IMG/VR virus record: IMGVR_UViG_3300025141_000025
Coordinates: 104,486-168,485 of that record
From: a virus
Strand: one strand, 5' to 3'
Length of the DNA: 64,000 nucleotides
Both the position numbers and the translations under genes were made by a program. The number at the start of each line of letters is the position of its first letter. Within the stretch, counting starts at the first letter, position 1. This document shows positions 18,164-62,713 of the stretch, in pieces. The notes beneath the pieces were generated by a model. That model saw only the letters and a list, made by a program, of their open reading frames with translations, had not been told where the DNA came from and searched no databases.

Positions 18164-18167
18164 AAAA

Positions 18168-40764: not shown

Positions 40765-40784
40765 AAATGACGTGCTAATACGTC

Positions 40785-42719: not shown

Positions 42720-42748
42720 ATTATAAAACATTCATATAATTTTTTCAA
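42720..42748 (-). promoter_or_regulatory. Sigma70-like promoter upstream of dnaK
   Basis: TTGAAA-N17-TATAAT. Confidence 0.6.
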
Positions 42749-42751
42749 AAC

Positions 42752-42940
42752 TCATGGACGATTACATTCAACGACGACCTCCAGGTCCTCATCATGATAC
42801 CACAAGCTCGCAGAGTCCCATTGCACGTGAACGCTGAGATTGTCAGGATCATATTTCTCAATCTGAATCACGATGCCTACACCTCCGTCAACAGACATAC
42901 ATGCACCTTCAGTGCATCTTACCAGGTCACCTACTTTCAT
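42752..42940 (-). CDS. MKVGDLV-family protein
   Basis: MKVGDLV. Confidence 0.7.
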   Translation of the reverse strand: MKVGDLVRCTEGACMSVDGGVGIVIQIEKYDPDNLSVHVQWDSASLWYHDEDLEVVVECNRP

Positions 42941-43121
42941 GAATAACCCTTAGCCTGTCAACGGCGTACTTTATAGTGATACCTCCAAAATTCACTAGTG
43001 CCGCCCCGCCCGGATAGCCTTTTTCGTTTGTAATTTCAATCACAATTCCTGGCCGGGTTTCCCATACGTGCCCCTTCATGGTTTCTCTTAGGCCGAGCCT
43101 TACTAAATCACCCGGTTTCAC
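42927..43121 (-). CDS. MKVGDLV-family protein
   Basis: MKPGDLV...IHESR. Confidence 0.7.
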   Translation of the reverse strand: MKPGDLVRLGLRETMKGHVWETRPGIVIEITNEKGYPGGAALVNFGGITIKYAVDRLRVIHESR

Positions 43122-43351
43122 TTGTGGTGCCTATTTTGTGCATTTATCATGCTAAGATAGTCGTGATACCCTGTAAAATCCATGATTGATCCGCTGTTGA
43201 ACATTACTAAAAATGAATGATCGGAAATTTCTATAACCAACCCAACTTTATTAAAGTGCGTCCATTCAATCGGATTAAAATCAGGAGACAGCGGTTTTCC
43301 GCCATCTAAGATAACCAAATCTCCAATACTGATTTTTTGACTAGTTTGCAA
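43118..43351 (-). CDS. MKVGDLV-family protein
   Basis: SIGDLV. Confidence 0.6.
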   Translation of the reverse strand: MQTSQKISIGDLVILDGGKPLSPDFNPIEWTHFNKVGLVIEISDHSFLVMFNSGSIMDFTGYHDYLSMINAQNRHHK

Positions 43352-43579
43352 TTAAAGAGCTAATGAAAAAACATCAGCCTGGTTATAAATTCTATTTTCA
43401 GAATTGCTTAAGTGAACATGCACAAGCGACCATTTTTTGTTGTATTTTTGAATGTCAATAACAATACCAAATATATTTTCATCCATCTGTGGCTTGAGGG
43501 GCCACGCTGTGCATTTGACAATACTACCAATTTTAATATTGTTATTCACTATATCAACGCCATAAACCTTTTTCTTCAT
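43352..43579 (-). CDS. MKVGDLV-family protein
   Basis: KIGSIV...GIV. Confidence 0.55.
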   Translation of the reverse strand: MKKKVYGVDIVNNNIKIGSIVKCTAWPLKPQMDENIFGIVIDIQKYNKKWSLVHVHLSNSENRIYNQADVFSLAL

Positions 43580-43633
43580 TCCAAATAAATAAGATGATTC
43601 CTGTTATCGGAATTAGCAAACCCAATAACTCCA

Positions 43634-44563
43634 CTAGGCCACCTTTGACATGGAACAAAAGTCATCACGATATTTGAACAATGCCAATTCCTTAGCCTTA
43701 CACTCGAGCACAACATCAGTAGGCTCGTTATACGACTCAAATGGTGTATAAAACCACGTGCTGTGCGCCATTTTATTGGCGGTGTGATCCTCGTACCGCC
43801 GGCGGCTGTTGCTATGGTGACACTGTTGCTTGATACCAACTGGCCACGTACCTCGTGCTAGATAATATGAATCATGATAGTCAAAATCCTGTGGGCCAAT
43901 CTCGAAATGATGCGAGTCAAATACGATAGGAATGCCAATACGACTGTATACACCATCATGCAGCATTTTGGTAGAATACAGGTTAGGTTTATCATCGTTT
44001 TCGACAGTGAGACGACACTGTGCCGAAGGTGAGAGACGTTTGAAATTGTCGCAAAATCGAGCCAACGCCTTTTCATGTTCACCATATGCACCACCTACAT
44101 GAATATTAATTTTAGCGCCTGGTGTGTTTGGCATACCAAGCATATCCATAATTTGTGCAGTTTGATCAAGTTCACGAAGAGACTTAGCAACGGTCGACTC
44201 ATTTGGACTAGCCAGGACGCAGAATTGACCTGGATGAAATGAAAGACGTTGACCACAGGAGCGAGCAATTTGTCCCGCCTCAGCAAGCGTATTTGCAATT
44301 TCTTGATAGTCAGGAAGATCTGTGATTTCGTATTCTGACATCCATGGAAACAAGCAGGACGTAACCCGGTATACACTGATGTCGTTCTTGTTGTTCCAGT
44401 CAACAACAGCACGAAGCCCTTTGACATTTGACAGTGCTAACATACTGGCATAGGGCATGCCCTTGGCCAGCCACGTACGGTTAATCATACCTCGATTGCA
44501 CATAATTTTAGACTGCTTTTGTAGCGTGGTATTAATGCACGCATAACCTAAATTAACTGACAT
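43634..44563 (-). CDS. uvsE: UV DNA damage endonuclease
   Basis: LGYACIN, RLSFHPGQF, IHVGG, VENDDK, FDSHH. Confidence 0.92.
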   Translation of the reverse strand: MSVNLGYACINTTLQKQSKIMCNRGMINRTWLAKGMPYASMLALSNVKGLRAVVDWNNKNDISVYRVTSCLFPWMSEYEITDLPDYQEIANTLAEAGQIARSCGQRLSFHPGQFCVLASPNESTVAKSLRELDQTAQIMDMLGMPNTPGAKINIHVGGAYGEHEKALARFCDNFKRLSPSAQCRLTVENDDKPNLYSTKMLHDGVYSRIGIPIVFDSHHFEIGPQDFDYHDSYYLARGTWPVGIKQQCHHSNSRRRYEDHTANKMAHSTWFYTPFESYNEPTDVVLECKAKELALFKYRDDFCSMSKVA

Positions 44564-47686: not shown

Positions 47687-49309
47687 TTACACCTTAATTC
47701 GGTCTATCAAGCCAGGATAACTAATAGCGAGTTCACGATAAAGCTTCTTTATAACTTTCTTAGAAATGTCGGCGACCTGCTGTTGGGCTGACTTATCCCT
47801 CAACCACTTCTCTGCAGCATCCTGCGTGACGTCTGAGACGAACTTGTTGATGTCACCTTTGGTTCCCATAAAGGTCTTCCCTAAAGCCTTTCTAATGGCA
47901 TCCTCTGCCTGCTTTTTGGCCAACTTTTCAACATCTTTTTTGTCAAGTGAATCTCTCTTGATTGCTATAGCAGCTTGTTTTTTGGCGATAGTTTCGATAG
48001 TCTTTTTATCAGCTGCAGATAATTCTTCCGTTAAAAGCATTTCTCTTATTGTACGCCTTAGTAATTTAGTGTGGTCACTTTTTTCGTTTATAGTTTTTCC
48101 ATGTCGTTTAAAGTGTGCCCACAGTGGTGTGCCCTCTTCATCCCAGTAGGGCCCAATGTCAAAATGACCCTTAGAGCGACCCCAATTTATAGTTTCAGTT
48201 GAAGCTTCAGGGTATTTTGTTATCTTTATCTTGATTTCATTAGGAAGCACATTTCCCCTCTTACTGCCTCTTATCTCAACAGTAAATTTTGCGTCTGTAT
48301 CAGTCTCAATATTAGCAGTAACTTGCTTTGAAGCGTCTTTTCCACCCTTACAATATCGTGGATAGCTAATGTTCACACTGGTAGGGGTACCAACCATATC
48401 AATGGCATCCTGTGGAGTTTCCAATAATTTTATCGTATATCCGCCCTCATGTCTTCTTGCGTATACATAGCCGTAGCCTAAACCTGATGCTAGATATTTT
48501 GCTACAACTGCTGCATCAAAGGTTGAGGGCAGTTTCTTTTTACATGCGTTAGCTTTTGTGGGTGTACCGTTTGCATAATCCGTAATCCCTTGGGCAACTA
48601 ATGACTTGTCAACCCCCAGTGCAGTGACAAACACATCCAAACTATGAGATGCAGGTGTAATTACACCACCATTTTGTACAAATGCGCCGGCATAACCAGC
48701 ATTTGCAAAAGTAGAACCAGTGGGATCTTTCAACGATATATAAAGTGGTTCTGCTTCACCTATGTCTAGGGTAATATCAGAAATAGCACTTCCTACATTG
48801 CTCACTTCCCCAGTAAGGGGTCGTCTACGAGCTGGTTTGAGATCTTCGACCCCCCTAATGCCTGTTGCAGGTAAGTTAAGGGCATCAAGAATTTCATCAG
48901 CCAACGGCCCCATTCGGGCCCGTAATTGTTTATGCAGCTGCTGTTCGAAAACCTCTCCTTTGTTGGGGCTTCCCATCACCACAGAAAAAGTTTCATTCGG
49001 ACCCTGGACTATGTGTGTCTCATATTTATCCGATCTGCTCTGGGCGCCCCCTTTAGGTGGGACAGTATCTACAACATTAAAACCTGGAACTTTATTGATC
49101 GCGGTGGTCGCATCAACTGAAGTGAGTGGAATCGTGGCATCATGTAATCCGAAACGCACTTCTTTTTCGCCTGGCTTTCGCCCTGGATTCATAGACTTAA
49201 AATCTGCGTTGGTTTTTAAAAATTGTTGCTTGAAAGCAGACTTGTCCATGTTCCGGCGCTCAAATAAAAGAACCCGGTTAAGATAATTTCTTAGTAATTC
49301 TTCACTCAC
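47687..49309 (-). CDS. Leader-tagged multidomain protein with PD-(D/E)xK-like nuclease
   Basis: MSEELLRNYLNRVLLFE; ISDITL...YISLK; internal LLRRTIREMLLTE. Confidence 0.55.
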   Translation of the reverse strand: MSEELLRNYLNRVLLFERRNMDKSAFKQQFLKTNADFKSMNPGRKPGEKEVRFGLHDATIPLTSVDATTAINKVPGFNVVDTVPPKGGAQSRSDKYETHIVQGPNETFSVVMGSPNKGEVFEQQLHKQLRARMGPLADEILDALNLPATGIRGVEDLKPARRRPLTGEVSNVGSAISDITLDIGEAEPLYISLKDPTGSTFANAGYAGAFVQNGGVITPASHSLDVFVTALGVDKSLVAQGITDYANGTPTKANACKKKLPSTFDAAVVAKYLASGLGYGYVYARRHEGGYTIKLLETPQDAIDMVGTPTSVNISYPRYCKGGKDASKQVTANIETDTDAKFTVEIRGSKRGNVLPNEIKIKITKYPEASTETINWGRSKGHFDIGPYWDEEGTPLWAHFKRHGKTINEKSDHTKLLRRTIREMLLTEELSAADKKTIETIAKKQAAIAIKRDSLDKKDVEKLAKKQAEDAIRKALGKTFMGTKGDINKFVSDVTQDAAEKWLRDKSAQQQVADISKKVIKKLYRELAISYPGLIDRIKV

Positions 49310-49391
49310 ATCAACCCGCCTACAAGTTTTTCTTTCATAATCATTACCTTAGTAAATATCTGTCATTTGAAAACCTCAAAAAGATGATGTT

Positions 49392-50423
49392 TTATTTTAG
49401 GGTTTGGGATTTTTTGAGTTCTTTATCAATCCACTGCAACGCGGTTTGATTTTTCACAGGTGATAAAATAAAATTACTAATTTTCTTTTCAGCGGTCAAA
49501 TTTTCTTTTTCCCTCAAATTGTCCCCGTCTAAAATTACAATATTACTGCCAAAAAGATCTATGTAGTTTTGCTTGTTTTTGTCGACTGCTGTCCAAGACC
49601 TTGTAAGATCCTTGTCACGCAATCGGCGGCCGCCTCTTTCACCCCGGGCAATGTTTCTTTGTTTTGCAACATCAAGTGAAGTTGCAACGTACACCATAAA
49701 TGTATCATATCCAAGATCTTCAAACTTTTTCTTTTGACTTTTTATTGTCGTATAATTTCCGCCGGTACCATCAATTATTAATCCTAAACGACCGTCAACG
49801 TAGTCCTCTTTTCTTTTCTTTGTTAGAGCTCTTGATTTATTGAACAGTTTTAGTTTTTTAATCCTATTTTCCCTGTCATCATCTTGCATGTCCATGCTTG
49901 AAAACTCACCCGACTCAATTCCTTTTTTCATTAGTAACTCAAAGGCATCATCTACATTTACAATCTTTAGTCCATATCGACCAGGAAAAACTAAATTCTT
50001 GACCGCAGTCGACTTGCCTGATCCGGGACCACCAGCAAGAAAAATTACCTTAAAAATCCCCTGGTCGTGGACACCCTCAGTCAGTAATGACAGGGTTTCA
50101 TAAATTATTTTTCTTATCTGTCGCCGTGTGGTTCTCATGTTTCCTTCATTCAGTTTACCAGGTGCCAACTGGTCTAATGTCTTTTCTAAGACTTCACCTT
50201 TTTTCCATCCTGGCCCCTGGTTCATGCATTGATACTCAGCAGTTTTTCCGGCGTTACCTGGAAGTATGTTAATAGAAATTACAATGCCAACGGAGCCATG
50301 GTGTTTACAGCTGGGATTTACATTGACAACATGGTCACCCACTGCCGGCTCATGAGCATGGCTTTGAAAAGTATCAAGCGCTTCCCGAACAAGGCTTCTT
50401 AGTTTGCTTTTTGTAATTTTCAT
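49392..50423 (-). CDS. Double-leader protein: SH3-like domain plus Zeta-toxin-like P-loop kinase
   Basis: MKITKSKL; internal LNE-GNMRTTRRQIRKII..LLTE; GGPGSGKS, NVDD, IIDGTG. Confidence 0.7.
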   Translation of the reverse strand: MKITKSKLRSLVREALDTFQSHAHEPAVGDHVVNVNPSCKHHGSVGIVISINILPGNAGKTAEYQCMNQGPGWKKGEVLEKTLDQLAPGKLNEGNMRTTRRQIRKIIYETLSLLTEGVHDQGIFKVIFLAGGPGSGKSTAVKNLVFPGRYGLKIVNVDDAFELLMKKGIESGEFSSMDMQDDDRENRIKKLKLFNKSRALTKKRKEDYVDGRLGLIIDGTGGNYTTIKSQKKKFEDLGYDTFMVYVATSLDVAKQRNIARGERGGRRLRDKDLTRSWTAVDKNKQNYIDLFGSNIVILDGDNLREKENLTAEKKISNFILSPVKNQTALQWIDKELKKSQTLK

Positions 50424-50617
50424 TTTTTGTTTGATTTTCTAAACTGTTTTCTAAGTTGTTTAATTTCGATATTTTGTGAGCTTAATTTTTCACTTATCGA
50501 TTCAACCTGTGTTTCAAGACTAGAAAGTCGGTGCTGGGTGGAATAATAAAATCCACCCAGCACCGCGACACAAGTGCCAATTGTAATTAGCGTCTTTATG
50601 TCTAAAGTTATTTTCAC
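50420..50617 (-). CDS. TM plus coiled-coil small protein
   Basis: Single TM. Confidence 0.55.
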   Translation of the reverse strand: MKITLDIKTLITIGTCVAVLGGFYYSTQHRLSSLETQVESISEKLSSQNIEIKQLRKQFRKSNKK

Positions 50618-50618
50618 C

Positions 50619-51065
50619 TTACTTTTCTTTTCCCTTAGATAATTTATCCTTTAGTCCTTTTAGTAAACCTATGAGCCAATTGTACCCACCAGTTAGTTTA
50701 GCTTTGACCCAAGACAAGGTTCCTGTAACGGTTCCCCAAACTGTGTTCCATGCTTTATTAACCCAACCTTTTATGGTTCCCAAAACATCTGATACGACTT
50801 CAACAGCCTGATCCCATGCCAGGTCTAGAATATCAACGATTAATTTAAGGGGTGAGCTTAGTACACGAAGGACTGGATGTCGGTCTCTTCGCAGCAAAAG
50901 CCACGCCAAAAGTACACCAATTAAAAGACCTTCAAGACGAGGGGCATCAGTGTGTAAATGACACAATAAATCCCAGCCCCACGTTGATACGGCTACAAGT
51001 AGCGCCCACGCAGAAACTAAAAGACCATGTAATAAATCCCAGCCTGCAGTCATAACTTCATTCAT
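50619..51065 (-). CDS. Membrane protein with Trp-rich amphipathic repeats
   Basis: AGGAG SD; TM segments. Confidence 0.6.
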   Translation of the reverse strand: MNEVMTAGWDLLHGLLVSAWALLVAVSTWGWDLLCHLHTDAPRLEGLLIGVLLAWLLLRRDRHPVLRVLSSPLKLIVDILDLAWDQAVEVVSDVLGTIKGWVNKAWNTVWGTVTGTLSWVKAKLTGGYNWLIGLLKGLKDKLSKGKEK

Positions 51066-51170
51066 TCGTTTTCTCCTTTATTTGAATTTGAATAATTTTT
51101 TAGTTATTCTCGACGGTGTTTACAGTTCAACCAACTTACCCGTCGTTCATTATCTATTTATCCTTGAGGA

Positions 51171-51506
51171 CTACATTTCATACTCTTCTGCCAAACCCTC
51201 GGAAATTAAAAAATTTTTCAAATCGATATCACCAAGAACGTAAACTGTAGCCAGCCACCGGCCGTATTTACCCTTACCGTGAGTTGTAATAATTACCTCT
51301 TTGTTCAAACAAAGATCCCTAACCCTATCACGGGCTTTGAGGGCCATAACTTTTTCGTCTGGATCTTTTGAACGAATTTCAGGTGTATTCACACCCACTA
51401 ACCTAAGTTTTATTTTCTTCGCCCACATCTTGAAGCCTAGATCAACTTCTGCCGTTAATGTATCACCATCATAGACTTTTGTAATGACAGCTCTGTACTC
51501 ATACAT
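51171..51506 (-). CDS. Thermonuclease (SNase-like)
   Basis: VYDGDT, RLVGVNTPE, GKYGRWLA. Confidence 0.85.
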   Translation of the reverse strand: MYEYRAVITKVYDGDTLTAEVDLGFKMWAKKIKLRLVGVNTPEIRSKDPDEKVMALKARDRVRDLCLNKEVIITTHGKGKYGRWLATVYVLGDIDLKNFLISEGLAEEYEM

Positions 51507-52325
51507 TTACGCCCACCCTCTCGACGTAAATTCTATGTGCGTCATTACAGGAATATCCAGGCCGGCCTTATCTAGTAGCGGTTGCCAAACGATATCAGCT
51601 TCCGCCGTGTCAGGACCGGCAGGCTCCATCTTTTGTAAATCTTCATCCCAGTAACCCGGCTGATTTGACGAGTCAGGTACGATAATCGCCAATGGAGACC
51701 AGTTGTCGACGAGAGCCTCATTATTCTGTGAGCCGCGGGAGCCGCCGACAGAAGGGTTCCAGTCTTCTTTATCCAACACAATAATTTTGTATTCTTCGTA
51801 ACCTTCTGGTTCGTATATCTGCTCAGCGCCTTTGTTGACGCCAGACTGCTTCTTTCTTTCTGGAAAAGCTGCACGGTAAGTATCTGTAGACCCTGTGTAC
51901 AGTTGGTCCATATCATTTGCTAGAAGAGTAATGTGACCCTTGATTAAAATTCCATAGTCCCCAAACCTACCGGCACCCTTTATTTCGCCTGGTAAATACG
52001 CTGCAGCGGATAGTTCATCTTTGGAACTAAATGAACCGCCAATAAACATCCTCATCGTTCTCTGGTCGCGGAACCAATGCACCGTGACCAAACTGCTAAG
52101 GAAATCGCGGTCAGCGGTTTTGGCGAACGCCTTTTTAAGAAGCTTGCCTTGATCGAGAGCACCCTTAACGAGCCTTCTCCTCTCATCAGGATTACTCTCT
52201 ACGGCGTAGGTTCCCGAGAAGTTTGCTTCGCTGTGGCCTGCATCAATGAGGTGTTGAGCAAATTGTTTGCGTCGGGCTGCATCTTCTAGCAGCAAAGACC
52301 TTATGTACTCGCGCAGTAGTTTCAT
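51507..52325 (-). CDS. MKLLREYIR-leader protein, paralog of 58178..59056
   Basis: TVHW, KDELS, KGHITL, NNEALVDNW. Confidence 0.7.
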   Translation of the reverse strand: MKLLREYIRSLLLEDAARRKQFAQHLIDAGHSEANFSGTYAVESNPDERRRLVKGALDQGKLLKKAFAKTADRDFLSSLVTVHWFRDQRTMRMFIGGSFSSKDELSAAAYLPGEIKGAGRFGDYGILIKGHITLLANDMDQLYTGSTDTYRAAFPERKKQSGVNKGAEQIYEPEGYEEYKIIVLDKEDWNPSVGGSRGSQNNEALVDNWSPLAIIVPDSSNQPGYWDEDLQKMEPAGPDTAEADIVWQPLLDKAGLDIPVMTHIEFTSRGWA

Positions 52326-52951
52326 ATCATTACCAATTTTCCTGCTGCTTCGAGTGCATTCATCGTCGTGGGTGGCTTTGTGTATCTTTTACTGAGGGGC
52401 GAGGTTTGCCAATCAATGTTTTTTGGCATGCCGTGATGGTTTGTATAGGAAGCGACACGCTGAACACAATTATCTTCTTCTTCCGGCGTTAGCGTATTTT
52501 CGAGGTCGTCCAATTGAATGCCCGTCACATCACCGCGATTGGATAAATAGTAATCCCACACCCTTCTAGCCTTTGGAGAAACAGCTCCACGATCAGAAAT
52601 CAGGCCGCCACCGTTTTGAGTTGCATACTCCATCGCTACGTCATACAACATAGGGCCCCAACCCTGGGTAGCCTCTGTGTGATAGACTTCCCAAGCACCG
52701 CCACATTCTCCCATTCCGGTTCGACTTGCGACTCGAGGTACTGACGAGATTGCCACGGAGCCACGAGGCTTGAGGTAAAGCATATCAGCCCTCATCCACT
52801 GGTCCGTCTTCGAGTGATACGCGGCATAATAAATCCTGACCTCTGCACCGGTGCCCTCCTCTATCGCGACGGAGATTCCTTCTGGTAAATCAGCAGGTCC
52901 TCTAGCAGCCTCGGTTAACAGTGTTCTTATGTATTCACGTAGCAGTTTCAT
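52322..52951 (-). CDS. MKLLREYIR-leader GNAT-like protein
   Basis: QGWGPMLYDVAME, SD..VSPKARRVW. Confidence 0.6.
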   Translation of the reverse strand: MKLLREYIRTLLTEAARGPADLPEGISVAIEEGTGAEVRIYYAAYHSKTDQWMRADMLYLKPRGSVAISSVPRVASRTGMGECGGAWEVYHTEATQGWGPMLYDVAMEYATQNGGGLISDRGAVSPKARRVWDYYLSNRGDVTGIQLDDLENTLTPEEEDNCVQRVASYTNHHGMPKNIDWQTSPLSKRYTKPPTTMNALEAAGKLVMI

Positions 52952-53286
52952 GATTCTATTCTCAATATTTGAATGGGTAGTTTTTCTACATTCCAGAACA
53001 CAGCGATTCCCCTCTCACGGGTTGGGGCAACAGGGGTGGTAAATTTTATAAAAACAGGAGTCTCTTCGAAACCTCTTCCTCTGTATAAGACAGTTATATC
53101 TTCTTTATTTTCTGCTTCTTCTTCGGGATCATCAAAAAATGCGTGAATAAATCCCCGCTTACCCGGATAAAGACAGTTACATTTTTGAATAGCTTCTAGG
53201 CCGGCTTGAGTTGTACCATGCATATAGATCTGCTGGCCCGACTGTTCTGTGAGCAAGCCTCTTATGTACTCGCGGAGTAGTTTCAT
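52948..53286 (-). CDS. MKLLREYIR-leader protein, possible ART-like
   Basis: Start moved to leader; YMHGT motif. Confidence 0.55.
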   Translation of the reverse strand: MKLLREYIRGLLTEQSGQQIYMHGTTQAGLEAIQKCNCLYPGKRGFIHAFFDDPEEEAENKEDITVLYRGRGFEETPVFIKFTTPVAPTRERGIAVFWNVEKLPIQILRIES

Positions 53287-54350
53287 TTTGGCATCTCCAC
53301 AGGGTGCCCTGCCCAAATTCCAAGATTTTCAACTACCGATGCTGCCTCTTTGGCATCATACCAGCCCCAATAAGTCTTCATAAGTTTCGACAGTTCATTA
53401 TAGATCTCATGGTAAGACTCATTCCAGCGACCTTTTACTCCGCTCGGTGATGTGTAAATCTTTTTGAGACCTTGTTTCACTAACGGATACCAAACCCTTC
53501 TCGCCATGTCCGGTTGGTCCTGCGTCGGTGGCGAGTGACCTCCAACTATTACATCAAGCGCATCAATTACAACCTCCACTACTTCTTTCATCTCGTAGAC
53601 TGCCGGATCATTGCCCAACCCAACCATGCCTGCTAGTTCTATTGCCTGAGCACCACCGTTGACGAACACTTCCTTAATCTTATCGAGCTCGGAGCGTTCC
53701 TGTTCCTGCTCGGTTAGCAGTCCCCTTATGTACTCGCGGAGTAGTCTTGATTCGGTCATGACCTCGGTATATCTATTCTCACCCTCATAAATAAAACTGT
53801 CAATATGGTTGAAACTCAACCCTTGGGCTGTACCAAGTATCTCAACTTCGGCCATACACTCATTTCTGGCACCACCCGCAAGATCTGAACCATTCCATCG
53901 AGGCAAGACTTCTTCTAGTTCTGGCACCCAAAAACCGTAGTCCTCGAGGTCATCAACTAAGAGCTCACTCACACCAATTGCATCCACATCTTCTTCCTCT
54001 AGGTCGCGAATGTCCTGAATGTCATTGTCAATCATGTACTTTACGATCTTTACGATTGAGGTGCGGTCAAAACAAACACTTGAGTCCATGACGTCTCTGA
54101 AAAAGCCGTATCCCTTGTCGAAGAAGGTTGACTTGGAAAGCAGGTCATCAAACGCTTCTTCATCGTAGTCAAGCTTTTCGAAGTAGAAGTCTTTCAATGC
54201 AGATTCTGACACCATGCCTAGTGTGTCTTCTCCATTATACAAGAAAAGAACATCGTCATAATCATTCACAGCGGTGTGTAACATGTCACCAATGTCGAAG
54301 TAGGTGTTACTTTCATACTCGGGTTGTACATCTACGACAATTAATTTCAT
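53283..54350 (-). CDS. Isochorismatase/cysteine-hydrolase-like domain fused through an internal leader to a second domain
   Basis: LIVVDVQ, GGARNEC; MTE-SRLLREYIRGLLTE. Confidence 0.55.
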   Translation of the reverse strand: MKLIVVDVQPEYESNTYFDIGDMLHTAVNDYDDVLFLYNGEDTLGMVSESALKDFYFEKLDYDEEAFDDLLSKSTFFDKGYGFFRDVMDSSVCFDRTSIVKIVKYMIDNDIQDIRDLEEEDVDAIGVSELLVDDLEDYGFWVPELEEVLPRWNGSDLAGGARNECMAEVEILGTAQGLSFNHIDSFIYEGENRYTEVMTESRLLREYIRGLLTEQEQERSELDKIKEVFVNGGAQAIELAGMVGLGNDPAVYEMKEVVEVVIDALDVIVGGHSPPTQDQPDMARRVWYPLVKQGLKKIYTSPSGVKGRWNESYHEIYNELSKLMKTYWGWYDAKEAASVVENLGIWAGHPVEMPK

Positions 54351-55663
54351 AAATCCCCCTCTAACAGAGCATTCTGTATCATGCTTTTGTATGTGTCTTC
54401 TTGTAACCAGTCTTCTTGTGCGCTTTTACTTAGTGCATGAAGGGGGTCAAAATATAAAAACTTTTCCCCAGGTTTAACAGAAGGCGCAGTCCACCCACTT
54501 ATTCCGCTATCTTTATGATACCACTCATAAGAGTGGACGCAGCGTTTACCTCCACCTCCTGGAGCGTCAACAACAAACGTAGGCGTGTTAAATCCGGCTG
54601 TCACACCCCTCACGCACTTTTCTACATCAAGTGCTGTTTGTAAAGATGTTCGCATATCTTCAGTACCGGCCGTTAGGTCATGTATGTAAACATAGTAGGG
54701 TTGAATGTTGATATAGCTTAGTTTTTTCACCAAAGAAATCATGCTATCAGCAGTGTCATTTACATGATTTTGAAACACAGACTGATTTCTGACCTTCACA
54801 CCCCTCGAGAACAAAACGTTCATGGCATCCTGTGTAATTCCTGTAATTTCATTTGAGTGGTTGAAATGGGTATGAATACATACTTCCTTGTACTGCTTTC
54901 TTGCCTTGCTTGTTATCTCACATATTGCGTCGGTCCAGCCTGCGTCAGTCAAGATCTTCATTGGCATAATTGCAAGGCCTTTTGTAGCAAATCGAAATCG
55001 CCTAATGTGATCAATCTTTAACAGCTCTTCACCAATCTCTTTTACTTGAGATGCTTTAAGTCTATAGGAATCCCCTCCAGAAATTACCACGTCTTGGATT
55101 TGCTTGTTTTCTCTCAGGTAATTGAACATAACATTCCATCTATCTCTAGACGCTTTGATAGAAACCTTCTCGGCGGTGTCTGTGTCTCCACCTACCGCAT
55201 AAGCCCTTGTACAATATCGACAGTATACAGGACATGTGTCCAACGCAAGAAATAACACCTTATCTTCATACCGATGCGTCAGGCCTTTCACAGGGGAGTC
55301 TGCTTGTTCACCTAAGCTATCGAATCGCAACATAGGATGGTCAGGTTGGAGATGAGAAGCAAGTGTCAGGAACTGCCTTCTAATGGGACAGTTAGTTGGA
55401 TCCTGCCAGTTCATAAGTGACAATAGATACGGCGTAATCCTGGTGGTCATCGGAGCTTTTTTAAAACCGGCTTTGGCATCTTCTAAAAATTCGTCATTCA
55501 CAAGCTCCTGAATTGTCTTGAGTAATTTTTTGTGATTTGTGATCGCATTCTTTTCTTGCCATTTGTGATCGATAAAAGTCTCATAGTCGACATCTTTCCA
55601 TGCTGGGATCAATCTCCAGAATTCATCTTCCCTAAACTGCGTATACTTGTGAAGTAGATTCAT
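54347..55663 (-). CDS. kamA: KamA-family radical SAM, lysine 2,3-aminomutase-like
   Basis: CPIRRQ, LTHRY, CPVYCRYCTR, ISGGD, NQSV, DAPGGGGK. Confidence 0.85.
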   Translation of the reverse strand: MNLLHKYTQFREDEFWRLIPAWKDVDYETFIDHKWQEKNAITNHKKLLKTIQELVNDEFLEDAKAGFKKAPMTTRITPYLLSLMNWQDPTNCPIRRQFLTLASHLQPDHPMLRFDSLGEQADSPVKGLTHRYEDKVLFLALDTCPVYCRYCTRAYAVGGDTDTAEKVSIKASRDRWNVMFNYLRENKQIQDVVISGGDSYRLKASQVKEIGEELLKIDHIRRFRFATKGLAIMPMKILTDAGWTDAICEITSKARKQYKEVCIHTHFNHSNEITGITQDAMNVLFSRGVKVRNQSVFQNHVNDTADSMISLVKKLSYINIQPYYVYIHDLTAGTEDMRTSLQTALDVEKCVRGVTAGFNTPTFVVDAPGGGGKRCVHSYEWYHKDSGISGWTAPSVKPGEKFLYFDPLHALSKSAQEDWLQEDTYKSMIQNALLEGDL

Positions 55664-56316
55664 TTCGGGTCCCTGATTTTAACAACTTGTATCTCAACAA
55701 TGGGTACACTCTGCAAACTAGTTATTACTTCTGCCTCTTCCCCATAATAGTCGCCCTGAAAGGCGCCAGCATATTGCTGGATTATTTCTTGTAAATCTAT
55801 CCAGTTCTGACCTGCGGCCGTTCCCTTTAGCACAACAGCGTAAGGTGTTTGTCCTTCATAATCGCGGTATTGCCTAGTTATCGCAAAGTCAGTGGCGATC
55901 TCTGGATCTTTTGTCCAGGAATCAATCTCAATACCCACCGGGGCGTAATTGAAATTGACTCTGATCGATTGTCCTTCCTCAAGTCCTTTCTTTTTCCAGT
56001 TTGGAGGTAAATTATTATCCATCCAATCGGGACCTACTGCTATACCACGATAAACTGGACCTGAATATCTCTTTATTACGTCATTGTATCTGGTGTCACT
56101 TGCGGCGTGTAATAGCATTTCCATTGCGCCAGATGAAAGTGAATAGGAGTCTGTATCAACGTGTTGTAAGATGAAACTTCTTAGTGCTTTCTCTTCGCCA
56201 GTGTCAGGCTCATCACCGGAATGTCGGCTCCCCGTGGGGGCGTGATCTGGCCAGAGTTTTTGACCGGCCTCGAACTCAAGAAGCAACCCTCTTATGTATT
56301 CACGGAGAAGTTTCAC
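55660..56316 (-). CDS. MKLLREYIR-leader ADP-ribosyltransferase (R-S-E type)
   Basis: VYRG, SWT, EAEV. Confidence 0.65.
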   Translation of the reverse strand: MKLLREYIRGLLLEFEAGQKLWPDHAPTGSRHSGDEPDTGEEKALRSFILQHVDTDSYSLSSGAMEMLLHAASDTRYNDVIKRYSGPVYRGIAVGPDWMDNNLPPNWKKKGLEEGQSIRVNFNYAPVGIEIDSWTKDPEIATDFAITRQYRDYEGQTPYAVVLKGTAAGQNWIDLQEIIQQYAGAFQGDYYGEEAEVITSLQSVPIVEIQVVKIRDPK

Positions 56317-57962
56317 TTTGGCTCCCGTCTTAGTTCTTCGTACTCATCCTCTCGATCAAAGCCGGCTCGCCTGTACCAAGCCTCGAGTTCCTTTGCTGAT
56401 AAAGTTTCTTGCCCGAATGGAACGGCATCGAGAGTCATCGGAACCTGATGCTTATCTGCTAGTGCAACGATTTTATTCATGACTTCGGAGGCGAAACCTT
56501 TCTTCTCGCATGTGTTACGAGGTACAGTCTGAATAGTGTTAAAACTTATTGCGCCATCGAATATGTTTACATCAGTCAAAACAAGGCAATCCTCATCATC
56601 GACTTTACCCATGTACCAGTATTGTATGCTTGGGTTTATGGGGTTGCGTTCGGACATAGAATAGTATTCTGCCATGAAAGCGTCGAACCTTTGTTGAAGG
56701 CCTTTTGGGGAATGTGTCGAAAGGGAGATGCCTGCTTGCAGTTGCTCCCTGACAATGCCCCTGATAATCACCTCACTCACATTATCGTTGTCCGAGGTGT
56801 CATCACCCACAAAGGCGTTGAGCGCTTCTTTTATTTTTGACAAATGTGGCTTGAGATCCTCGAATTTTTCATTTTTTTCAACTTCATCGAATACTTTATC
56901 GATAGTGCCCTTATTCTTTTTAATCAGGTCCTTTGTTTCATCTATCTTTTTGATAATTTTAGGACCGTGTTTACCTGCAAGTTTTGACCCCTTCGGAAAT
57001 GCCTTTGTAAACCAAACAGCCAATTTACCACCTTTTCCAACAGCATCACCGATAACTGGAACTAATGAAATAAGAGAAAGCGCAGCGAAAAGGTAATCTC
57101 CTTTTCTAGCGTAATCTATCACATTAGCGGCATCAGCAAATTCACCGAGTCCTGGAATCAACCCAGCGAGATCAAGAACAACGTTGTATGCGGATGTTTC
57201 TTCAACTATCAATTCATGTATATACCTGCGAACCACAGCTTCATTCATGCGCTTCTTGAGAAGGTCCAAAAGCTGCTGATCTTTCTCGTCAGGTTTTTTC
57301 TGGAAATGTGGTATCCTCAAGCCTTTTCTGGCATTCGGGTAGGTTATGATCTCATCCGGCTTTACTTCATATTTAGTTGCAAGTTTCTTAAGGACTTTCT
57401 TGATCTCCTCTTGAGACATCATCTTCACGGCAGCCGCAGGATGAGATGTAGCTCTTAAGCCCTCTAGGCTGGGGTGATCTCCGATCGGATCTCGGCTATC
57501 GCTATGTGTACCCTTCCGTTTAGCGTCCCTGGACCATGAGCGACCCACGGTATCCCACAAGTCCTTTTGGCCCATGGTCTTTCCCAGGAACTCTATTTCT
57601 TTTCCGGCCTCTCTCCACACTTCTTCTGGAATGAGAATTTCTGAACCTGTATCGAATCGATGTATACCGCCTGACTTTTCAATAACCCACTCAGGTACTT
57701 TGTAGGCATACACGTTACCGCTTACCCCATGATGCTGAACAATGTCTGTAGGATTGGGGGTCAAAAATACACCAGACTTAACTGAACTGGATAGCCAAGG
57801 TCGATCCCATTCTTGTTCCGGCTGTCCCTGGCTTTGCCATCGCTGCTTTGGCTTGGGCTCAGCAGGGCGAGGTCCGATATGATAGAGAGTACGCTTGCCC
57901 TTTTGGCCGCGAAGCTCTTTTTCCACAAGAAGTGTGACTGTATGTTTGTGTAGAGTTTTCAT
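56313..57962 (-). CDS. Multidomain protein: ART-like, pre-toxin TG-like, GNAT
   Basis: LYHIG/GVFLT/EILI; LDLAGLIPGLGEFADAAN; KGFASEVM...WYRRAGF; leader-like linkers. Confidence 0.6.
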   Translation of the reverse strand: MKTLHKHTVTLLVEKELRGQKGKRTLYHIGPRPAEPKPKQRWQSQGQPEQEWDRPWLSSSVKSGVFLTPNPTDIVQHHGVSGNVYAYKVPEWVIEKSGGIHRFDTGSEILIPEEVWREAGKEIEFLGKTMGQKDLWDTVGRSWSRDAKRKGTHSDSRDPIGDHPSLEGLRATSHPAAAVKMMSQEEIKKVLKKLATKYEVKPDEIITYPNARKGLRIPHFQKKPDEKDQQLLDLLKKRMNEAVVRRYIHELIVEETSAYNVVLDLAGLIPGLGEFADAANVIDYARKGDYLFAALSLISLVPVIGDAVGKGGKLAVWFTKAFPKGSKLAGKHGPKIIKKIDETKDLIKKNKGTIDKVFDEVEKNEKFEDLKPHLSKIKEALNAFVGDDTSDNDNVSEVIIRGIVREQLQAGISLSTHSPKGLQQRFDAFMAEYYSMSERNPINPSIQYWYMGKVDDEDCLVLTDVNIFDGAISFNTIQTVPRNTCEKKGFASEVMNKIVALADKHQVPMTLDAVPFGQETLSAKELEAWYRRAGFDREDEYEELRREPK

Positions 57963-57980
57963 TGTGTATTATCTCATGAG

Positions 57981-58193
57981 TTATTTCTCAAATTTTTTCC
58001 CGTCAGCTGTCATGTGCGGGCCTGCATGTGATTTATGCCTCACACAAACATTGTATTCACAATCACTCATTTTGATTTCTTTGCATAAAATTTTAGGATA
58101 CATGACTGCCCACACAGCCACCCCTACCGCAGCAAATCCCAACAAGACAAATGTCAGTATTACGGTTGTTATAATGTTCATGATGGACTCCAC
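57981..58193 (-). CDS. Small TM protein with Cys/His tail
   Basis: TM; C..C..H..H. Confidence 0.5.
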   Translation of the reverse strand: MESIMNIITTVILTFVLLGFAAVGVAVWAVMYPKILCKEIKMSDCEYNVCVRHKSHAGPHMTADGKKFEK

Positions 58194-59056
58194 AGTTTTG
58201 TTCGACTTGTGTCGTAGATCGGAATACCAAGATCTAGTGATGCCAACATGATCTTCTTCACTACACCTGCCGAGAAATAATCGATGTCTTTAGCTGTGTT
58301 ACCGCTAGGGGCACTTTGTCCACCGGAGACCAGCTTCTCCGCCGTTTTAAGAACAGCCTGCGCAACATCGTCCTTTGCAACGATAATTCCTCGAGGTCTC
58401 CAGTTGTCAACTAGGGCTTCATTATTCGACCAATCTGTATCTGCCGGGTTCCACGTGGACTGGTCTAAAACGTACGGGATTCCATCTCTTGCCATCTTCT
58501 CCATGTACTCGTCTCCGCGCTTGAGTTGACCGTACCGACTGTAATCTTTTGACACAGAGGGTCGTTTGTTTCTGCCAGAAGATCTGTCTCTTTGCGTAAC
58601 AGCCTCTTCGTCACCTTCATGACCGACACCATAGTCACCATAAAACCCTGAGTACATTTTGTCTTGATCGTTTGTTGCCAGCGTTATTCTTCCCTTGATC
58701 CACAACCCGTATGGGAGACCGGCTGCTGGCTCAAAGCTATCACCAGGGAGAGTCATCGTGGTAGAAAGCTCGTCCTTGCCTCTTCCTTTCATGTTCTCAA
58801 TGCCATAGAAATCGCTAGTCCAGTGGACAGTGTCCAGAGTGCTGAGAAACTGGTGATCTGCGTTTTTGTTGAATGCACGCTTGATATCACGACCGGCCTC
58901 TTTGCCGATTTGCCCACCAAAAAACTGGTCACCGAAACTATCGGATGCGGCTAGGTCATGGACAAAACCCATCGGATCTTCTTTTAATAGCATTCGAATT
59001 TCAGTGAGGAGTGCCTCCCTAATCATTTTCCTAAGTTTTGATTCTGAAATTTTCAT
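58178..59056 (-). CDS. MKIS-leader protein, paralog of 51507..52325
   Basis: MKISESKLRKMIREALLTE; shared motifs. Confidence 0.7.
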   Translation of the reverse strand: MKISESKLRKMIREALLTEIRMLLKEDPMGFVHDLAASDSFGDQFFGGQIGKEAGRDIKRAFNKNADHQFLSTLDTVHWTSDFYGIENMKGRGKDELSTTMTLPGDSFEPAAGLPYGLWIKGRITLATNDQDKMYSGFYGDYGVGHEGDEEAVTQRDRSSGRNKRPSVSKDYSRYGQLKRGDEYMEKMARDGIPYVLDQSTWNPADTDWSNNEALVDNWRPRGIIVAKDDVAQAVLKTAEKLVSGGQSAPSGNTAKDIDYFSAGVVKKIMLASLDLGIPIYDTSRTKLWSPS

Positions 59057-61197
59057 TTCTCTTCAAACTCCTCTTTTGATTTTTTGCTCCACCTATCTCT
59101 TGGTAAGAGTTTTTCAACTTTGAATCTTAAAATTGATTTTCCGTTAATCGTAGGATGACCATATTCATCCTTTCCAATTTTTTTTACAATAGTCCTCTTA
59201 TTCTTAAACTTACCCGTGAGTATAATATCGCCATGTTCTAAATCCAACGTGATAGATTCTAGAATATCTCTAAGTTCTATCGGCCAATCTTGTTCTGGCC
59301 AACGCGTCATTAGATAATATTGCCATATTTCTCTAATCTTTTTCATTAATGGGTCTAAATCAGCTTTAGAATAACCGCTATCCAATCCCGTTGCATAAAT
59401 GTTATAAAGCTCTTTGTCAATGACATCGGCGGCAGGTTCACCTTTTCTTTTTGATTTAATGACAAGTCCTGCTACATAAGAAGGAACCTCGGCTTCACTC
59501 GTATAATAATCTTCTGCCCTTTGCAGGGTTTTCCATATCTCAGAATCAGGAACCTTTTTTTGAACATCCATTAACACATCAGTTGATTGACCTGAATGTT
59601 CTAGTTCGTGCCTTATATCACTTTCTATTTCTATTTTGAAACGATGAATTTCTTCATCCTCATAATCGGTCGGCATGTATAATTGTAGCAAAATGTCAGA
59701 CGTCTTTCGTTGCTCATCATCTGCATCTAAGTCAAACTGATATGCCGCTGAGGAATTAAAGTCATCATGAGGAATTAATTCAACAGAGACATTCCTAAGC
59801 CATACGACATTTTTGGGCAATTTTATGTCTACATTAAATTTTAATTGCCCTTGCGTCGCATATGCGTTTCGTAAATCCGGATCAAACAGGTATTCAATAA
59901 CTTCATTTGTTATTGTTTCCGCGACCTTTTCTAATTTTCGACCTGTGAGTGATTTTTCTAACAAGAGGTTTCTAATATATTGACGCAATATAGTTTCTCT
60001 TATGCTGGCCTTCTTCAGCCTGATCTCTACCGGTGATTGTCCGAATCCGTCAAATGCGCTTGTTATCTTGTAACCTAGAGACTCAATACCCTCTGCCTCT
60101 TTTGGAAATTGCTGCACGAAGTCATCGACTTTCATGACTGGTTTTTCAGGCTTGAGACCGGTGTCGAATATCAGCTCCTCAACGCCCTCTTCCTTGTAGC
60201 TTTCGTCGAAGTACTTAAACTCTCCGCCCATAGCCTTGATGTGATCGATGAGTGCTCCATGGTCCACCTGCATTTTCTCTTCGGCTTGCTTCCTTGCTCG
60301 CTCTACTTCACGATGTTCGACCTCAAAGATGTTGAACATTGCCACCTTTCCCTTGAGCGGGTCCAGTACTGTATCGAACAGATCTTTAAATTTCTTTTCG
60401 TATTGCTGCGCTCGCTGATCGTGCTTAGAGTCGGGGTTCAATTCGATGATATCACCGTTCTTCATGCTAAGCTGTTCTGGAACACCGAGGACTAAGTTGC
60501 CATCGTTCTTTAGATAGTCGGCAAATATGTCGCCGAATAGATCAAAATCACCGCTGGGTAGTTTAACACCTGGAAACAAATCACTCAGTAAGATGTCAGG
60601 GTTTGATACACCAAGTCTGCGACCGGTATGTTTCATTGAATCTCGAACCTGTTCAGCTTCCATCGACCCGCCACCGTGAGACAGCCAGACCAGCTCCATC
60701 AAATACTCTTTTATGAGAGAAGTGAATTTGTCTTTTTCTCCTCTTTCACGCCCGGGGGCATTCTCAATCATATGATGAAGATCATGAGCCAGATAGTGAG
60801 GGTTGACATCAGCGATGAATGTATCTCCACCGGCAGGAACCTCAAAAGACTTAGGGTAGACGTAAAGAAGGTTGATTCCGTCTGGCTTCATCGCCTTCTG
60901 TATTTGTGGGTATAACTTTCCGATGTTTGAAATGTCAGTAAGGGTGACTTGACCTCGGCTTTTGAATCCGGATACTTTACCCTGTATTTCGTTTGGTAGT
61001 CTATGCGCCCAGCTAAGATCATCTGTATGAGCGACGTAGATGTTGACGCTCTGGGGAATTGCTTTGAAATAATCGGCAACCTCTTCGCGGACCATCACAT
61101 CATCATCATCTTGTGTGAGATACTCGAAATCGTCGAGAGGAACTTCCATGAGAAGCCCCCTTACGCAACGCCTAAGTTTTTCTTCGAAATTTAACAC
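59053..61197 (-). CDS. Leader-linked multidomain protein with zincin-like motifs
   Basis: HDLHH, HELEH; IRE-TILRQYIRNLLLE linker; C-terminal HGDII SH3-like. Confidence 0.55.
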   Translation of the reverse strand: MLNFEEKLRRCVRGLLMEVPLDDFEYLTQDDDDVMVREEVADYFKAIPQSVNIYVAHTDDLSWAHRLPNEIQGKVSGFKSRGQVTLTDISNIGKLYPQIQKAMKPDGINLLYVYPKSFEVPAGGDTFIADVNPHYLAHDLHHMIENAPGRERGEKDKFTSLIKEYLMELVWLSHGGGSMEAEQVRDSMKHTGRRLGVSNPDILLSDLFPGVKLPSGDFDLFGDIFADYLKNDGNLVLGVPEQLSMKNGDIIELNPDSKHDQRAQQYEKKFKDLFDTVLDPLKGKVAMFNIFEVEHREVERARKQAEEKMQVDHGALIDHIKAMGGEFKYFDESYKEEGVEELIFDTGLKPEKPVMKVDDFVQQFPKEAEGIESLGYKITSAFDGFGQSPVEIRLKKASIRETILRQYIRNLLLEKSLTGRKLEKVAETITNEVIEYLFDPDLRNAYATQGQLKFNVDIKLPKNVVWLRNVSVELIPHDDFNSSAAYQFDLDADDEQRKTSDILLQLYMPTDYEDEEIHRFKIEIESDIRHELEHSGQSTDVLMDVQKKVPDSEIWKTLQRAEDYYTSEAEVPSYVAGLVIKSKRKGEPAADVIDKELYNIYATGLDSGYSKADLDPLMKKIREIWQYYLMTRWPEQDWPIELRDILESITLDLEHGDIILTGKFKNKRTIVKKIGKDEYGHPTINGKSILRFKVEKLLPRDRWSKKSKEEFEEK

Positions 61198-61229
61198 ACT
61201 ACTAAATATCTTACAAAACCTTTAAAGCA

Positions 61230-61259
61230 TTGTGGCCGTGAATTAATTCACGGCCACAA
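61230..61259. terminator. Perfect 30-bp palindrome (terminator or binding site)
   Basis: TTGTGGCCGTGAATTAATTCACGGCCACAA. Confidence 0.6.
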
Positions 61260-61288
61260 ATAAACTTACAACTACTGTATTCGGATAC

Positions 61289-61609: not shown

Positions 61610-62713
61610 TTATGAGTGCAAACCACCAAGCATAGTAACTGCAATTAGACCAGGTAAATTTTGATTTACATATACGCCAGAGAACAATGTAGAGGCTCGG
61701 CCACCAACATAAGAAAATGCCGATTCAAGCCTGTTACTCACACCAGGATCTGATGCCATTTCGCTAGTTACAACAAGTAACAACACACCTGTCTTTGCAT
61801 TCCCAGATGGATTTGGGCAGGGTGATGAGCGCAGGCAACCCTGAAATACAGTGGCACCGAGATCAGCCCTCGAGACATCTCTAACAACCGTACTACCAAG
61901 TAAAATCCTGCCAGGCTGTTGCAAACATTTTTCTAGATCCTTTGAGTCAAAACTCTGAATTGGAGAACTGTCATTTGCCATTTTTAGAACTACACCTAAA
62001 AGTTTTGCAAAATTTGTGTTGGCCGCTGGATACATGTCTAACATTCCTACTTTACCACGTAACAGCTGCAACTGTTTTTCGTTGTCAATGATAATGTGAG
62101 GGTAGTTTACAATATCTTTTCGGCATGCCTCGAAATTTGCTTTAATGGTTGGATTCAATAGTTCTTGTGCTGTAGGCTTGCTAATCACATAAATGACCTT
62201 TCCGACTGATTCGATTGAACTAAGGTATCGTGTTGCAGAGTCATGTAAGCTAGAACATGCACTGCCTGTTCCGCCGCCGCCGCCAGCCAGTACAAAAATC
62301 CAATCGACCTTACCAATTCGAGTCCTTAGCGCATCTTCATAAAGGGCGCTATTTTCACTTAGGACCTTTTTACCTAGTTTTACGTCTTTACCTACCCCAT
62401 CCGCACCAGGAATAAGCAAAAAATGCTGTGGTTCAACTCCAGCAGGCTGGTCTTTTACTGTTGTATTGACAAGTAGGGTTTTATTAAATCCTACATCCAA
62501 AAATGCCTTTGCTAATTTTCCGCCGCCACCACCAACACCAATAAATGCGCAACTAATTGCACTAGGCGCGGTATTATCAGGCAGTAACCTATCATCGCCT
62601 GCTACAGGCGTATCATCATATGCTTCGACAAATCCAAAATCAAAATCCGATCCTGTACCAGGGTCAGGATTATTAATGTAATTGTCATCATGCGTTTCAT
62701 TACCGTTGCTCAT
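61610..62713 (-). CDS. Tubulin/FtsZ-superfamily GTPase (PhuZ/TubZ-like)
   Basis: IGVGGGG, VNT, GVGKD, GGGGGTGS, IDN, FDxxD. Confidence 0.8.
   Translation of the reverse strand: MSNGNETHDDNYINNPDPGTGSDFDFGFVEAYDDTPVAGDDRLLPDNTAPSAISCAFIGVGGGGGKLAKAFLDVGFNKTLLVNTTVKDQPAGVEPQHFLLIPGADGVGKDVKLGKKVLSENSALYEDALRTRIGKVDWIFVLAGGGGGTGSACSSLHDSATRYLSSIESVGKVIYVISKPTAQELLNPTIKANFEACRKDIVNYPHIIIDNEKQLQLLRGKVGMLDMYPAANTNFAKLLGVVLKMANDSSPIQSFDSKDLEKCLQQPGRILLGSTVVRDVSRADLGATVFQGCLRSSPCPNPSGNAKTGVLLLVVTSEMASDPGVSNRLESAFSYVGGRASTLFSGVYVNQNLPGLIAVTMLGGLHS

Follow-up and report, generated by a model that had tools for sequence, protein, structure and literature searches.

A second leader peptide resembling the T4 capsid-targeting sequence on enzyme cargos of uncultured T4-like phages

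A stretch of 64,000 nucleotides of an uncultured, marine, T4-like giant phage, from the IMG/VR virus record IMGVR_UViG_3300025141_000025 (positions 104,486 to 168,485 of that record, hereafter the window) encodes, between positions 47,687 and 61,197, a cluster of proteins that repeatedly open with the same short peptide, MKLLREYIRxLLxE. This peptide is called here leader 2, another type of leader (leader 1) being present in the same cluster. Leader 2 is probably a propeptide of the type that addresses proteins to the capsid of phage T4: it would be cleaved by the head protease, would load ADP-ribosyltransferases (ARTs), a kinase and other modules into the head, and would also mark the points at which polyproteins are cut. 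In the mechanism proposed, the amphipathic N-terminal helix would dock the freshly synthesized protein onto the scaffolding core while the prohead assembles, and a gp21-type head protease would cut after the Glu of a hydrophobic-x-Glu site (LL-x-E14 and, in roughly half of the relatives, I-R-E10). The trimmed cargo would then stay in the head and enter the host with the DNA, while the same cuts would split open reading frames (ORFs) with internal tags into their modules. As the cargos are mostly enzymes, their action on host targets would begin as soon as infection does. New in this work are the closer likeness of this second tag to the T4 sequence, its swap with leader 1, the fusion and fission of genes at the tags, and two cargo families with ART folds.

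Leader 2 and its likeness to the T4 capsid-targeting sequence

Almost every gene of the window is on the minus strand; ORFs are named here after their low (3') coordinate. An earlier note on this DNA had recognized leader 2 on four ORFs, and both the reading of ORF starts and a six-frame scan bear this out: M/V-KLLREYIR(S/T/G/G)LL(L/T/T/L)E opens, in that order, ORFs 51507-52325, 52322-52951, 52948-53286 (ATG start at 53286) and 55660-56316 (GTG start). The window contains five copies of LLREYIRxLLxE, four N-terminal and one internal, for an expectation of 0, and a degenerate DNA pattern for LLREYIR gives five matches, all on a single strand, versus 0.00 in 100 shuffles. The five copies differ synonymously at most positions (CTA/CTG/CTT/CTC, CGC/CGT, GAG/GAA, AGG/AGA, TTG/CTG). 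Because codons vary in this way while the peptide is unchanged, the conserved object is the peptide, and not an RNA or DNA element, and an explanation of the repeat at the RNA or DNA level was rejected on this ground. A Sec or Tat signal peptide was dismissed on sight, the tag being charged and amphipathic, and devoid of a hydrophobic core.

Copies of the leaders are also found inside ORFs, all on the minus strand. The exact internal leader 2 (LLREYIRGLLTE, 53709-53744) lies inside ORF 53283-54350, a leader-2-like copy (VVRRYIHELIVE, 57201-57236) inside ORF 56313-57962, and a looser one (ILRQYIRNLLLE, 59956-59991) joins modules A and B of ORF 59053, whose modules B and C meet at a leader-1 remnant (ELRDILESITLDLE, 59236-59277). 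These internal tags stand exactly at module junctions, each after another hydrophobic-x-Glu (MTE, MNE and IRE, just before the first, second and third copy, respectively). At their N-termini, ORFs 47687-49309, 56313-57962 and 59053-61197 read ..LLRNYLNRVLLFE, MKTLHKHTVTLLVE and ..KLRRCVRGLLME, respectively. The earlier note took these for variants of the leader, rightly so: they represent the same tag after divergence, because orthologues in related phages carry clearer versions of it (DLIRKHIRDILSE for 56313 in L011, MLLHEYIRDLLME for 59053 in G001).

How widespread is this peptide? A scan of IMG/VR with the full tag recovered 17 stretches, distributed over 12 contigs (33-284 kb), and the cluster is common to the window, to L011/G001 (284 kb) and to L015/G002, with 69-85% DNA identity over shared genes. 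The strict form LLREYIR is present in 3-6 copies in each of five related IMG/VR records, on one strand and within 3-6 kb (controls 0-1), and is outnumbered by looser forms (MN-, MR- and MS-LLREYIR, and others). Over 141 distinct proteins, the consensus is M-[K/N]-L-L-R-E-Y-I-R-[E in 55%]-L-L-x-E, with E14 in all 141, position 12 occupied by L in 132, I in 8 and M in 1, and I8-R9-E10 in 55%. The tag forms an amphipathic, Leu-rich helix with basic residues flanking, which appears as a separate N-terminal helix in the AlphaFold2 models of 55660 and 51507.

Behind this constant part, the cargos are diverse. The 54 leader-2 ORFs of the relatives have nothing in common beyond the tag, and the two ART-fold families described below (55660 and 51507/58178) likewise have the tag alone in common at the profile level, hhalign aligning the leader alone with a probability of 93%. 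Pfam identified DUF192, RNase_T exonuclease, DUF2608 and HAD domains among these 54 ORFs, as well as weak SprT-like and GNAT matches; enzyme-like cargos thus do occur among leader-2 ORFs, most families being without an assigned function. Small non-enzymatic proteins, too, carry leader 2, and about 25 small proteins carry leader 1. Two further leader-2 cargo families, at L025:7427-7951 and L023:9787-10605 and both absent from the window, match Acetyltransf_1 at an E-value of about 1e-3, below the cut-off. For most cargos of the cluster, no match was obtained in Pfam, PHROGs, NCBIfam or PADLOC; the cluster DNA has no match in 50,697 GenBank phage records, and a literature search with the tag strings found no paper.

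In T4, the capsid-targeting sequence (CTS) is MKTYQEFIAE (PMC8442874), in which residues 4 and 7 govern targeting and residues 8 and 10 processing by gp21, the prohead protease that acts inside proheads and cuts after L/I-x-E (PMC9026906). M1, K2, E6 and I8 are identical in leader 2 (as is E10 in 55% of the proteins), and Y replaces F at position 7. Like the T4 CTS, leader 2 would be a short N-terminal propeptide on fast-evolving proteins that are otherwise unrelated. Each of the two peptides closes with the gp21 site L/I-x-E, leader 2 often having I-R-E exactly at positions 8-10, and each belongs to T4-like phages that encode a protease of the gp21 type and a capsid protein of the gp23 type. 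Leader 2 differs from the T4 CTS by its length (14 residues versus 10) and by the frequent presence of two predicted cut sites (E10 and E14). Unlike T4, the system considered here has two interchangeable tag types in one genome, and dozens of cargos versus three; many of these cargos, known here from sequence, are enzyme-sized, unlike the T4 internal proteins, and tags are also found within ORFs at module junctions.

The corresponding head genes are present in related phages. Peptidase_S77 (T4 gp21) is found in four of five leader-2 phage records, with scores of 90-93 bits versus a cut-off of 27, including both leader-2 records that are at least 90% complete (PHROG 'head maturation protease', 1e-50), and the major capsid protein of leader-2 phages is gp23-like. 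In the head module of G001, two proteins encoded just after the gp21-type protease open with leader-1-like helices, MAKITKRMLKGIVKE.. and ..MAKRVRKITPNFLKRIVVEE (positions 9253-10036 of L031, which is G001:C1:72000-86000; minus strand, among head morphogenesis genes). The same module also encodes a very acidic, scaffold-like protein of 543 amino acids (aa) that precedes the gp23-like capsid gene and ends ..ETDRWAVLAGIGK.

Processing of head-internal proteins is not restricted to T4: in the giant phages phiKZ, 201phi2-1 and SPN3US, many of them, namely ejection and inner-body proteins, are cleaved after Glu, at a very short motif, by a gp21-related protease (PMC9026906). The sites cut in these phages are of the S/A-x-E type, unlike those of leader 2, and their proteins have neither a common N-terminal tag nor tagged-cassette cargo sets. 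Taken together, the CTS-like tag, its gp21 motif and the presence of the protease in relatives add to the proposal of the earlier note that the cluster encodes a pre-packaged set of host-modifying or anti-defence enzymes, packaging and injection being a well-motivated inference.

Interchange of leaders and joining of modules

Leaders 1 and 2 swap on homologous cargos between phages. The N-module of 49392 carries leader 1 in the window and a leader-2 variant in L007, where it is a separate gene (L007:261-560). Protein 58178 carries in the window a leader-1 variant followed by a leader-2 tail (IRMLLKE), and plain leader 2 in most members of its family (for example MKLLREYIRELLKEDPMGFVHDLAAS). 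The last module of 59053 (residues 641-712) exists as a separate leader-1 gene in L012 (L012:4903-5142), whose N-terminal leader 1, MKVTKRQLRKIISEALALDLE, aligns with the leader-1 remnant ELRDILESITLDLE of the window protein.

Fusion and fission of genes also follow the tags. Residues 403-634 of 59053 correspond to a separate leader-2 gene in L011/G001 (L011:8320-9060), while module A of the same protein is fused to the 58178 protein in G001 (678 aa), and G002 joins the 56313 N-module, 59053 module A and the 58178 protein in one ORF of 1114 aa. The N-module of 53283 is found within a 688-aa protein in G005, and the metagenomic proteins P0012 and P0016 likewise consist of tag-joined modules. 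Among 39 longer distant ART homologues, a leader at the junction was recognized by eye in P0012, P0015 and P0016, a regular expression matching 0. Judging from these gene arrangements, the modules behave as independent cassettes, and the internal tag junctions would be sites of cleavage.

ORF 53283-54350 (minus strand) encodes a two-module protein of 355 aa whose internal leader 2 is exact and whose N-terminal leader is lost, MKL being directly followed by IVVDVQPEYE. Its orthologues in G001 and G003 begin with MKLLREYIRVLLEQEQGSKGSLVVVDIQPEYE, and comparison with L022:10026-11183 places the break inside the tag-coding DNA, of which only MKL is kept; at this break, the gene order also departs from that of G001.

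Such an organisation recalls the polymorphic toxins of bacteria (Rhs, CDI), which likewise combine a constant delivery part with swappable enzyme modules, ARTs included, and recombine at the constant part. Here, unlike Rhs and CDI, the constant part is a putative capsid address of 14 residues, delivery would occur by DNA injection, and no immunity genes are evident.

Cargos of the cluster and neighbouring genes

A leader-2 cargo is encoded by ORF 55660-56316 (minus strand; 218 aa, leader coded at 56275-56316), for which the R-S-E ADP-ribosyltransferase announced in the earlier note is supported by predicted fold and near-invariant residues. A profile search assigns 808 representatives to its family. 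The motif consists of R90-G91, S133-W134-T135 and E194-x-E196; across 99 sequences with 17-91% identity to the window protein, R90, G91, S133, W134, E194 and E196 either do not vary or are conserved at 90% or more, and in the AlphaFold2 model (pLDDT 89) these residues are located within strands 82-94, 132-135 and 196-199 or at their margins. All 50 VIA matches listed for this model are ART-superfamily chains, with the Vis toxin at Z 8.3 (root-mean-square deviation, rmsd, 3.5; 139 residues aligned), and Tpt1, Tre1, HopU1, pertussis toxin and cholera toxin as the next structural matches. In BFVD, the model retrieves 13 phage proteins at an E-value of 0.001 or less; the list extended to 0.03 includes ARTs that form part of proteins with a portal, minor-capsid or head-morphogenesis annotation and, as weak matches, ModA and ModB of the T4 type (about 0.02). 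None of the 99 family members matches any Pfam ART family, and no match was obtained in NCBIfam, in PADLOC or, by profile search, in the PDB. ORF 55660 is thus, by predicted fold and residues, an ADP-ribosyltransferase, and represents an undescribed R-S-ExE family, because no curated sequence family matches it.

Alt of T4 is a head-packaged ART processed by gp21 (PMC9026906) and injected with the DNA. Alt and 55660 are both of the R-S-E type, Alt residing in a T4-type head and being a substrate of the head protease. At about 75 kDa, Alt is a large protein, and it is trimmed at both ends; the cargos described here have about 200 residues. Several distant members of the 55660 family (P0020, P0034, P0041, P0044, P0057, P0062, P0066, P0079 and P0093) start with a third N-terminal helix, MKL(I/L)(M/L/F)ENW(R/K)x(F/Y)(L/I)xE, which suggests that lineage-specific tags may have been placed on one shared 55660-type cargo.

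A second ART-like family comprises ORF 51507-52325 (minus strand; 272 aa, with the predicted fold at residues ~71-272) and its paralogue 58178-59056 (minus strand; 292 aa), which bears the hybrid tag described above. The family counts at least 506 clusters, in the majority of which leader 2 is present. H83, S106 and E203 do not vary among 65 sequences; they occupy successive strands of the core in the AlphaFold2 model of 51507, whose pLDDT is 74 (85-94 in the core), with a long low-confidence insert at residues 144-200. Foldseek places CteC first (E-value 1.6e-3, probability 0.95-0.96), and an exhaustive comparison with 48,161 chains gives ARTs as its six best matches (Tpt1, CteC, three chains of DarT and SopF, at Z 5.1-6.9), the rows that follow matching N-terminal helices only; a language-model search points to DUF3626 and OspC. 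The core of 51507 is aligned with Tpt1 at Z 6.9 (rmsd 3.8, 101 residues), with Chromobacterium CteC at Z 6.2-6.8 (144-156 residues) and with DarT at Z 6.1-6.3. The earlier note had described an HG/HI-type ART-like fold, and an ART-superfamily fold with an invariant His on its first core strand is roughly what the models give for 51507/58178, with moderate support, because Z stays below 8.

The catalytic residues of CteC are R65, S97 and E220 (PMC10810742). From aligned ranges and chain order only, H83, S106 and E203 would be their counterparts in 51507, which has His at the first position, where CteC has Arg65. In sequence, 51507 has no similarity to CteC, DarT or Tpt1.

Four parts make up the 343-aa protein of ORF 49392-50423 (minus strand): a variant of leader 1, a small module of the SH3-like type, a hybrid leader inside the chain (residues 97-116, coded at 50076-50135) and a P-loop kinase of the Zeta-toxin-like type, with Walker A motif GGPGSGKS at residues 131-138; the Zeta-like kinase under the first type of leader is thus upheld (Pfam Zeta_toxin, 36.8 bits versus a cut-off of 22.3). 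The leader-2 cargo of ORF 52322-52951 (minus strand; 209 aa) belongs to the most expanded family, with 1474 clusters at an E-value of 0.001 or less, of which the best 120 all have leader 2 or a minor variant of it, and with 2-3 paralogues per relative. Its invariant residues are C83, G99, P100, Y103, D104, E108, D120 and R121. A GNAT fold had been suggested for this protein; a GNAT-like G-x-G-P and helix motif, and a language-model search whose nearest named clusters are GNAT (0.91-0.92), point weakly in this direction, while 0 of 15 family members match Pfam and a PDB profile search gave no match.

The polyprotein of ORF 59053-61197 (minus strand; 714 aa, diverged leader 2) is made of three cassettes, A (with HDLHH), B (with HELEH) and C, which is small. 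The HExxH motif of module B is kept in three homologues that are 22-39% identical (HELEH in the window and L011, HEVHH in L025), and this motif, on which the suggestion of a zincin stands, is weakly in favour of it; a single-sequence PDB search with 59053 gave no usable match, and a search for related loci with module B alone gave no relatives. ORF 56313-57962 (minus strand; 549 aa) encodes another multi-module protein, with its diverged leader 2 (MKTLHKHTVTLLVE), its internal leader copy and a candidate GNAT-like motif at the C-terminus, for which Pfam gave no match. ORF 52948-53286 (minus strand; 112 aa) is an orphan leader-2 cargo with a YMHGT motif, whose sole match is Pfam PTS_2-RNA (Tpt1/KptA) at an E-value of 0.23, and of which nothing beyond the leader matches in the loci of relatives. 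BLAST among the 'YH(G/A/I)' proteins (52948, the 56313 N-module and L023:9383-9790) found no relationship beyond the leader. The 540-aa protein of ORF 47687-49309 (minus strand) combines its diverged leader 2 (LLRNYLNRVLLFE) with an internal leader-like copy (LLRRTIREMLLTE, 48026-48064); phrog_8438, of unknown function, is its sole family match (2.7e-9), Pfam, NCBIfam and PADLOC giving none, and the PD-(D/E)xK nuclease named in the earlier note would be a candidate assignment for it.

Untagged genes are interspersed with the cargos or adjoin them. A KamA-family radical-SAM aminomutase (TIGR00238, 246.6 bits versus a cut-off of 199.2) is encoded in the middle of the cluster (54347-55663, minus strand), and is 87% identical in G001, where it occupies another place in the gene order. 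A staphylococcal-nuclease-like protein of 111 aa (51171-51506, minus strand; Pfam SNase, 1.4e-13) is kept beside leader-2 clusters in L007, L011, L012, L017 and L025. A tubulin/FtsZ-like protein of 367 aa (61610-62713, minus strand), with the Gly-rich loops GVGGGGGK and AGGGGGTGS (Pfam Tubulin, 3.5e-4, below the cut-off), adjoins the tagged cluster both in the window and in G001, with 87% identity. A perfect hairpin with a 12-bp stem, GTGGCCGTGAAT/ATTCACGGCCAC (61203-61263, minus strand), follows the gene upstream and is itself followed by GATATTTA, 5 nucleotides before the GTG of 59053, which suggests that a transcription unit may start in this region; scans of the window for sigma-70 promoters and terminators did no better than shuffles. 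Farther away, DnaJ-like and DnaK-like ORFs, recognized from their N-terminal sequences only, lie at 39656-42647, within a segment (39656-44563, minus strand) that also encodes a UV-damage endonuclease (Pfam UvdE, 1e-50), and the G+C content reaches 49-53% at 14000-24000, versus about 42% elsewhere in the window.

Rival readings and significance of the leaders

Several points weigh against leader 2 as a capsid-targeting propeptide. We infer docking, cleavage, packaging and injection, as well as every substrate. In what is a short amphipathic helix, 4-5 residues of 10 are identical to the T4 CTS, a likeness that may stem from convergence as well as from common descent. The evidence for the protease comes from relatives only, with 69-85% DNA identity to the window over shared genes, and about 140 kb separate the cluster from the head module in G001. 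The window has no copy of the T4 late promoter TATAAATA, and the candidate motif GATANTTA has 9 matches there versus 7.9 expected, which is not significant; copies of the latter stand just upstream of ORFs 59053 and 47687. Several copies in the window lack an intact N-terminal tag: this is the case for 53283, and possibly for 59053, for which Met17, with an AAGGGGG ribosome-binding site 6 nucleotides upstream, is an alternative to the GTG start at 61197, so that its N-terminal tag may be a remnant. The cargo proteins 47687, 52322, 55660 and 58178 have no match in the 50,697 GenBank phage records, in which no cultured phage with these cargo families is therefore found, and tblastn against the same records detected no sequence relationship to T4 Alt. 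Alt itself is not known to use a CTS of the type found on the internal proteins of T4.

Could the tag instead serve within the producing cell? A shared helix might mediate oligomerisation or docking to a partner, or act as a handle for chaperones such as a phage DnaK/DnaJ pair, on proteins that are never packaged. Hsp70 binds Leu-rich segments flanked by basic residues, a description that fits the amphipathic tag, and DnaK-like and DnaJ-like ORFs are present in the window. We nevertheless hold such a role to be unlikely, as it leaves unexplained the hydrophobic-x-Glu ending kept in 141 of 141 proteins, the second site of this kind before the internal copies, and the likeness to the T4 CTS together with the similar helices on head-module proteins. 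The cleavage motif would be accounted for if the tag were an inhibitory or activating propeptide, keeping toxic enzymes inert in the producing cell until it is cleaved, with no role at the capsid, and the toxin-like folds of the cargos (ARTs, Zeta-like kinase) would suit such a function. The modelled tag is, however, a detached helix that does not pack on the active site, the leaders also head small non-enzymatic proteins, and this specificity was found in a single protease, that of the prohead, whose site of action in T4 is the inside of proheads (PMC9026906); this explanation thus appears somewhat less probable still than a handle inside the cell.

Finally, the leader might be kept mainly as DNA, as a recombination joint for the shuffling of cassettes, the peptide being a passenger. 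Mobile regulatory cassettes have reportedly been described in T4-type phages, and the breakpoints inside leader DNA (53283 keeping only MKL), as well as the modules fused and split at tags, are what such a joint would produce. The heavy synonymous variation under an unchanged peptide speaks against it, the tag DNA being largely no more alike than the peptide requires, and so does conservation of the peptide over 141 proteins on many contigs; recombination at the tags more plausibly follows, as a side effect, from the coding sequence that they share, and we give this explanation very little credence. A capsid-targeting propeptide is, of these readings, the most likely in our view.

The T4 CTS is the textbook route by which phage proteins are carried into the host, and is known from a few small anti-restriction proteins in coliphages. 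In public metagenomes and virus contigs, part of which bear a Tara Oceans label, a recognisably similar tag is carried by large families that are undescribed; the three that were searched are all without annotation. If the tag acts as in T4, these dark-matter proteins gain a location (inside the virion) and a timing (the first seconds of infection), their exact cleavage sites are predicted, and new ADP-ribosyltransferase families are brought to light, that probably act on targets of host takeover or anti-defence. More tentatively, and at rather less than even odds in our view, a large clade of giant T4-like phages, marine and uncultured, may possess a plug-and-play effector system made up of the two leaders, each leader being at once a ticket to the capsid, a cleavable polyprotein linker and a recombination joint, and providing each virion with a variable set of injected ARTs, kinases and other enzymes. 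If true, phages would have their own counterpart of the polymorphic toxin systems of bacteria, of a scale far beyond that of T4 with its three internal proteins, and the polyprotein and cassette organisation would represent a new way for phages to diversify the effectors that they inject.

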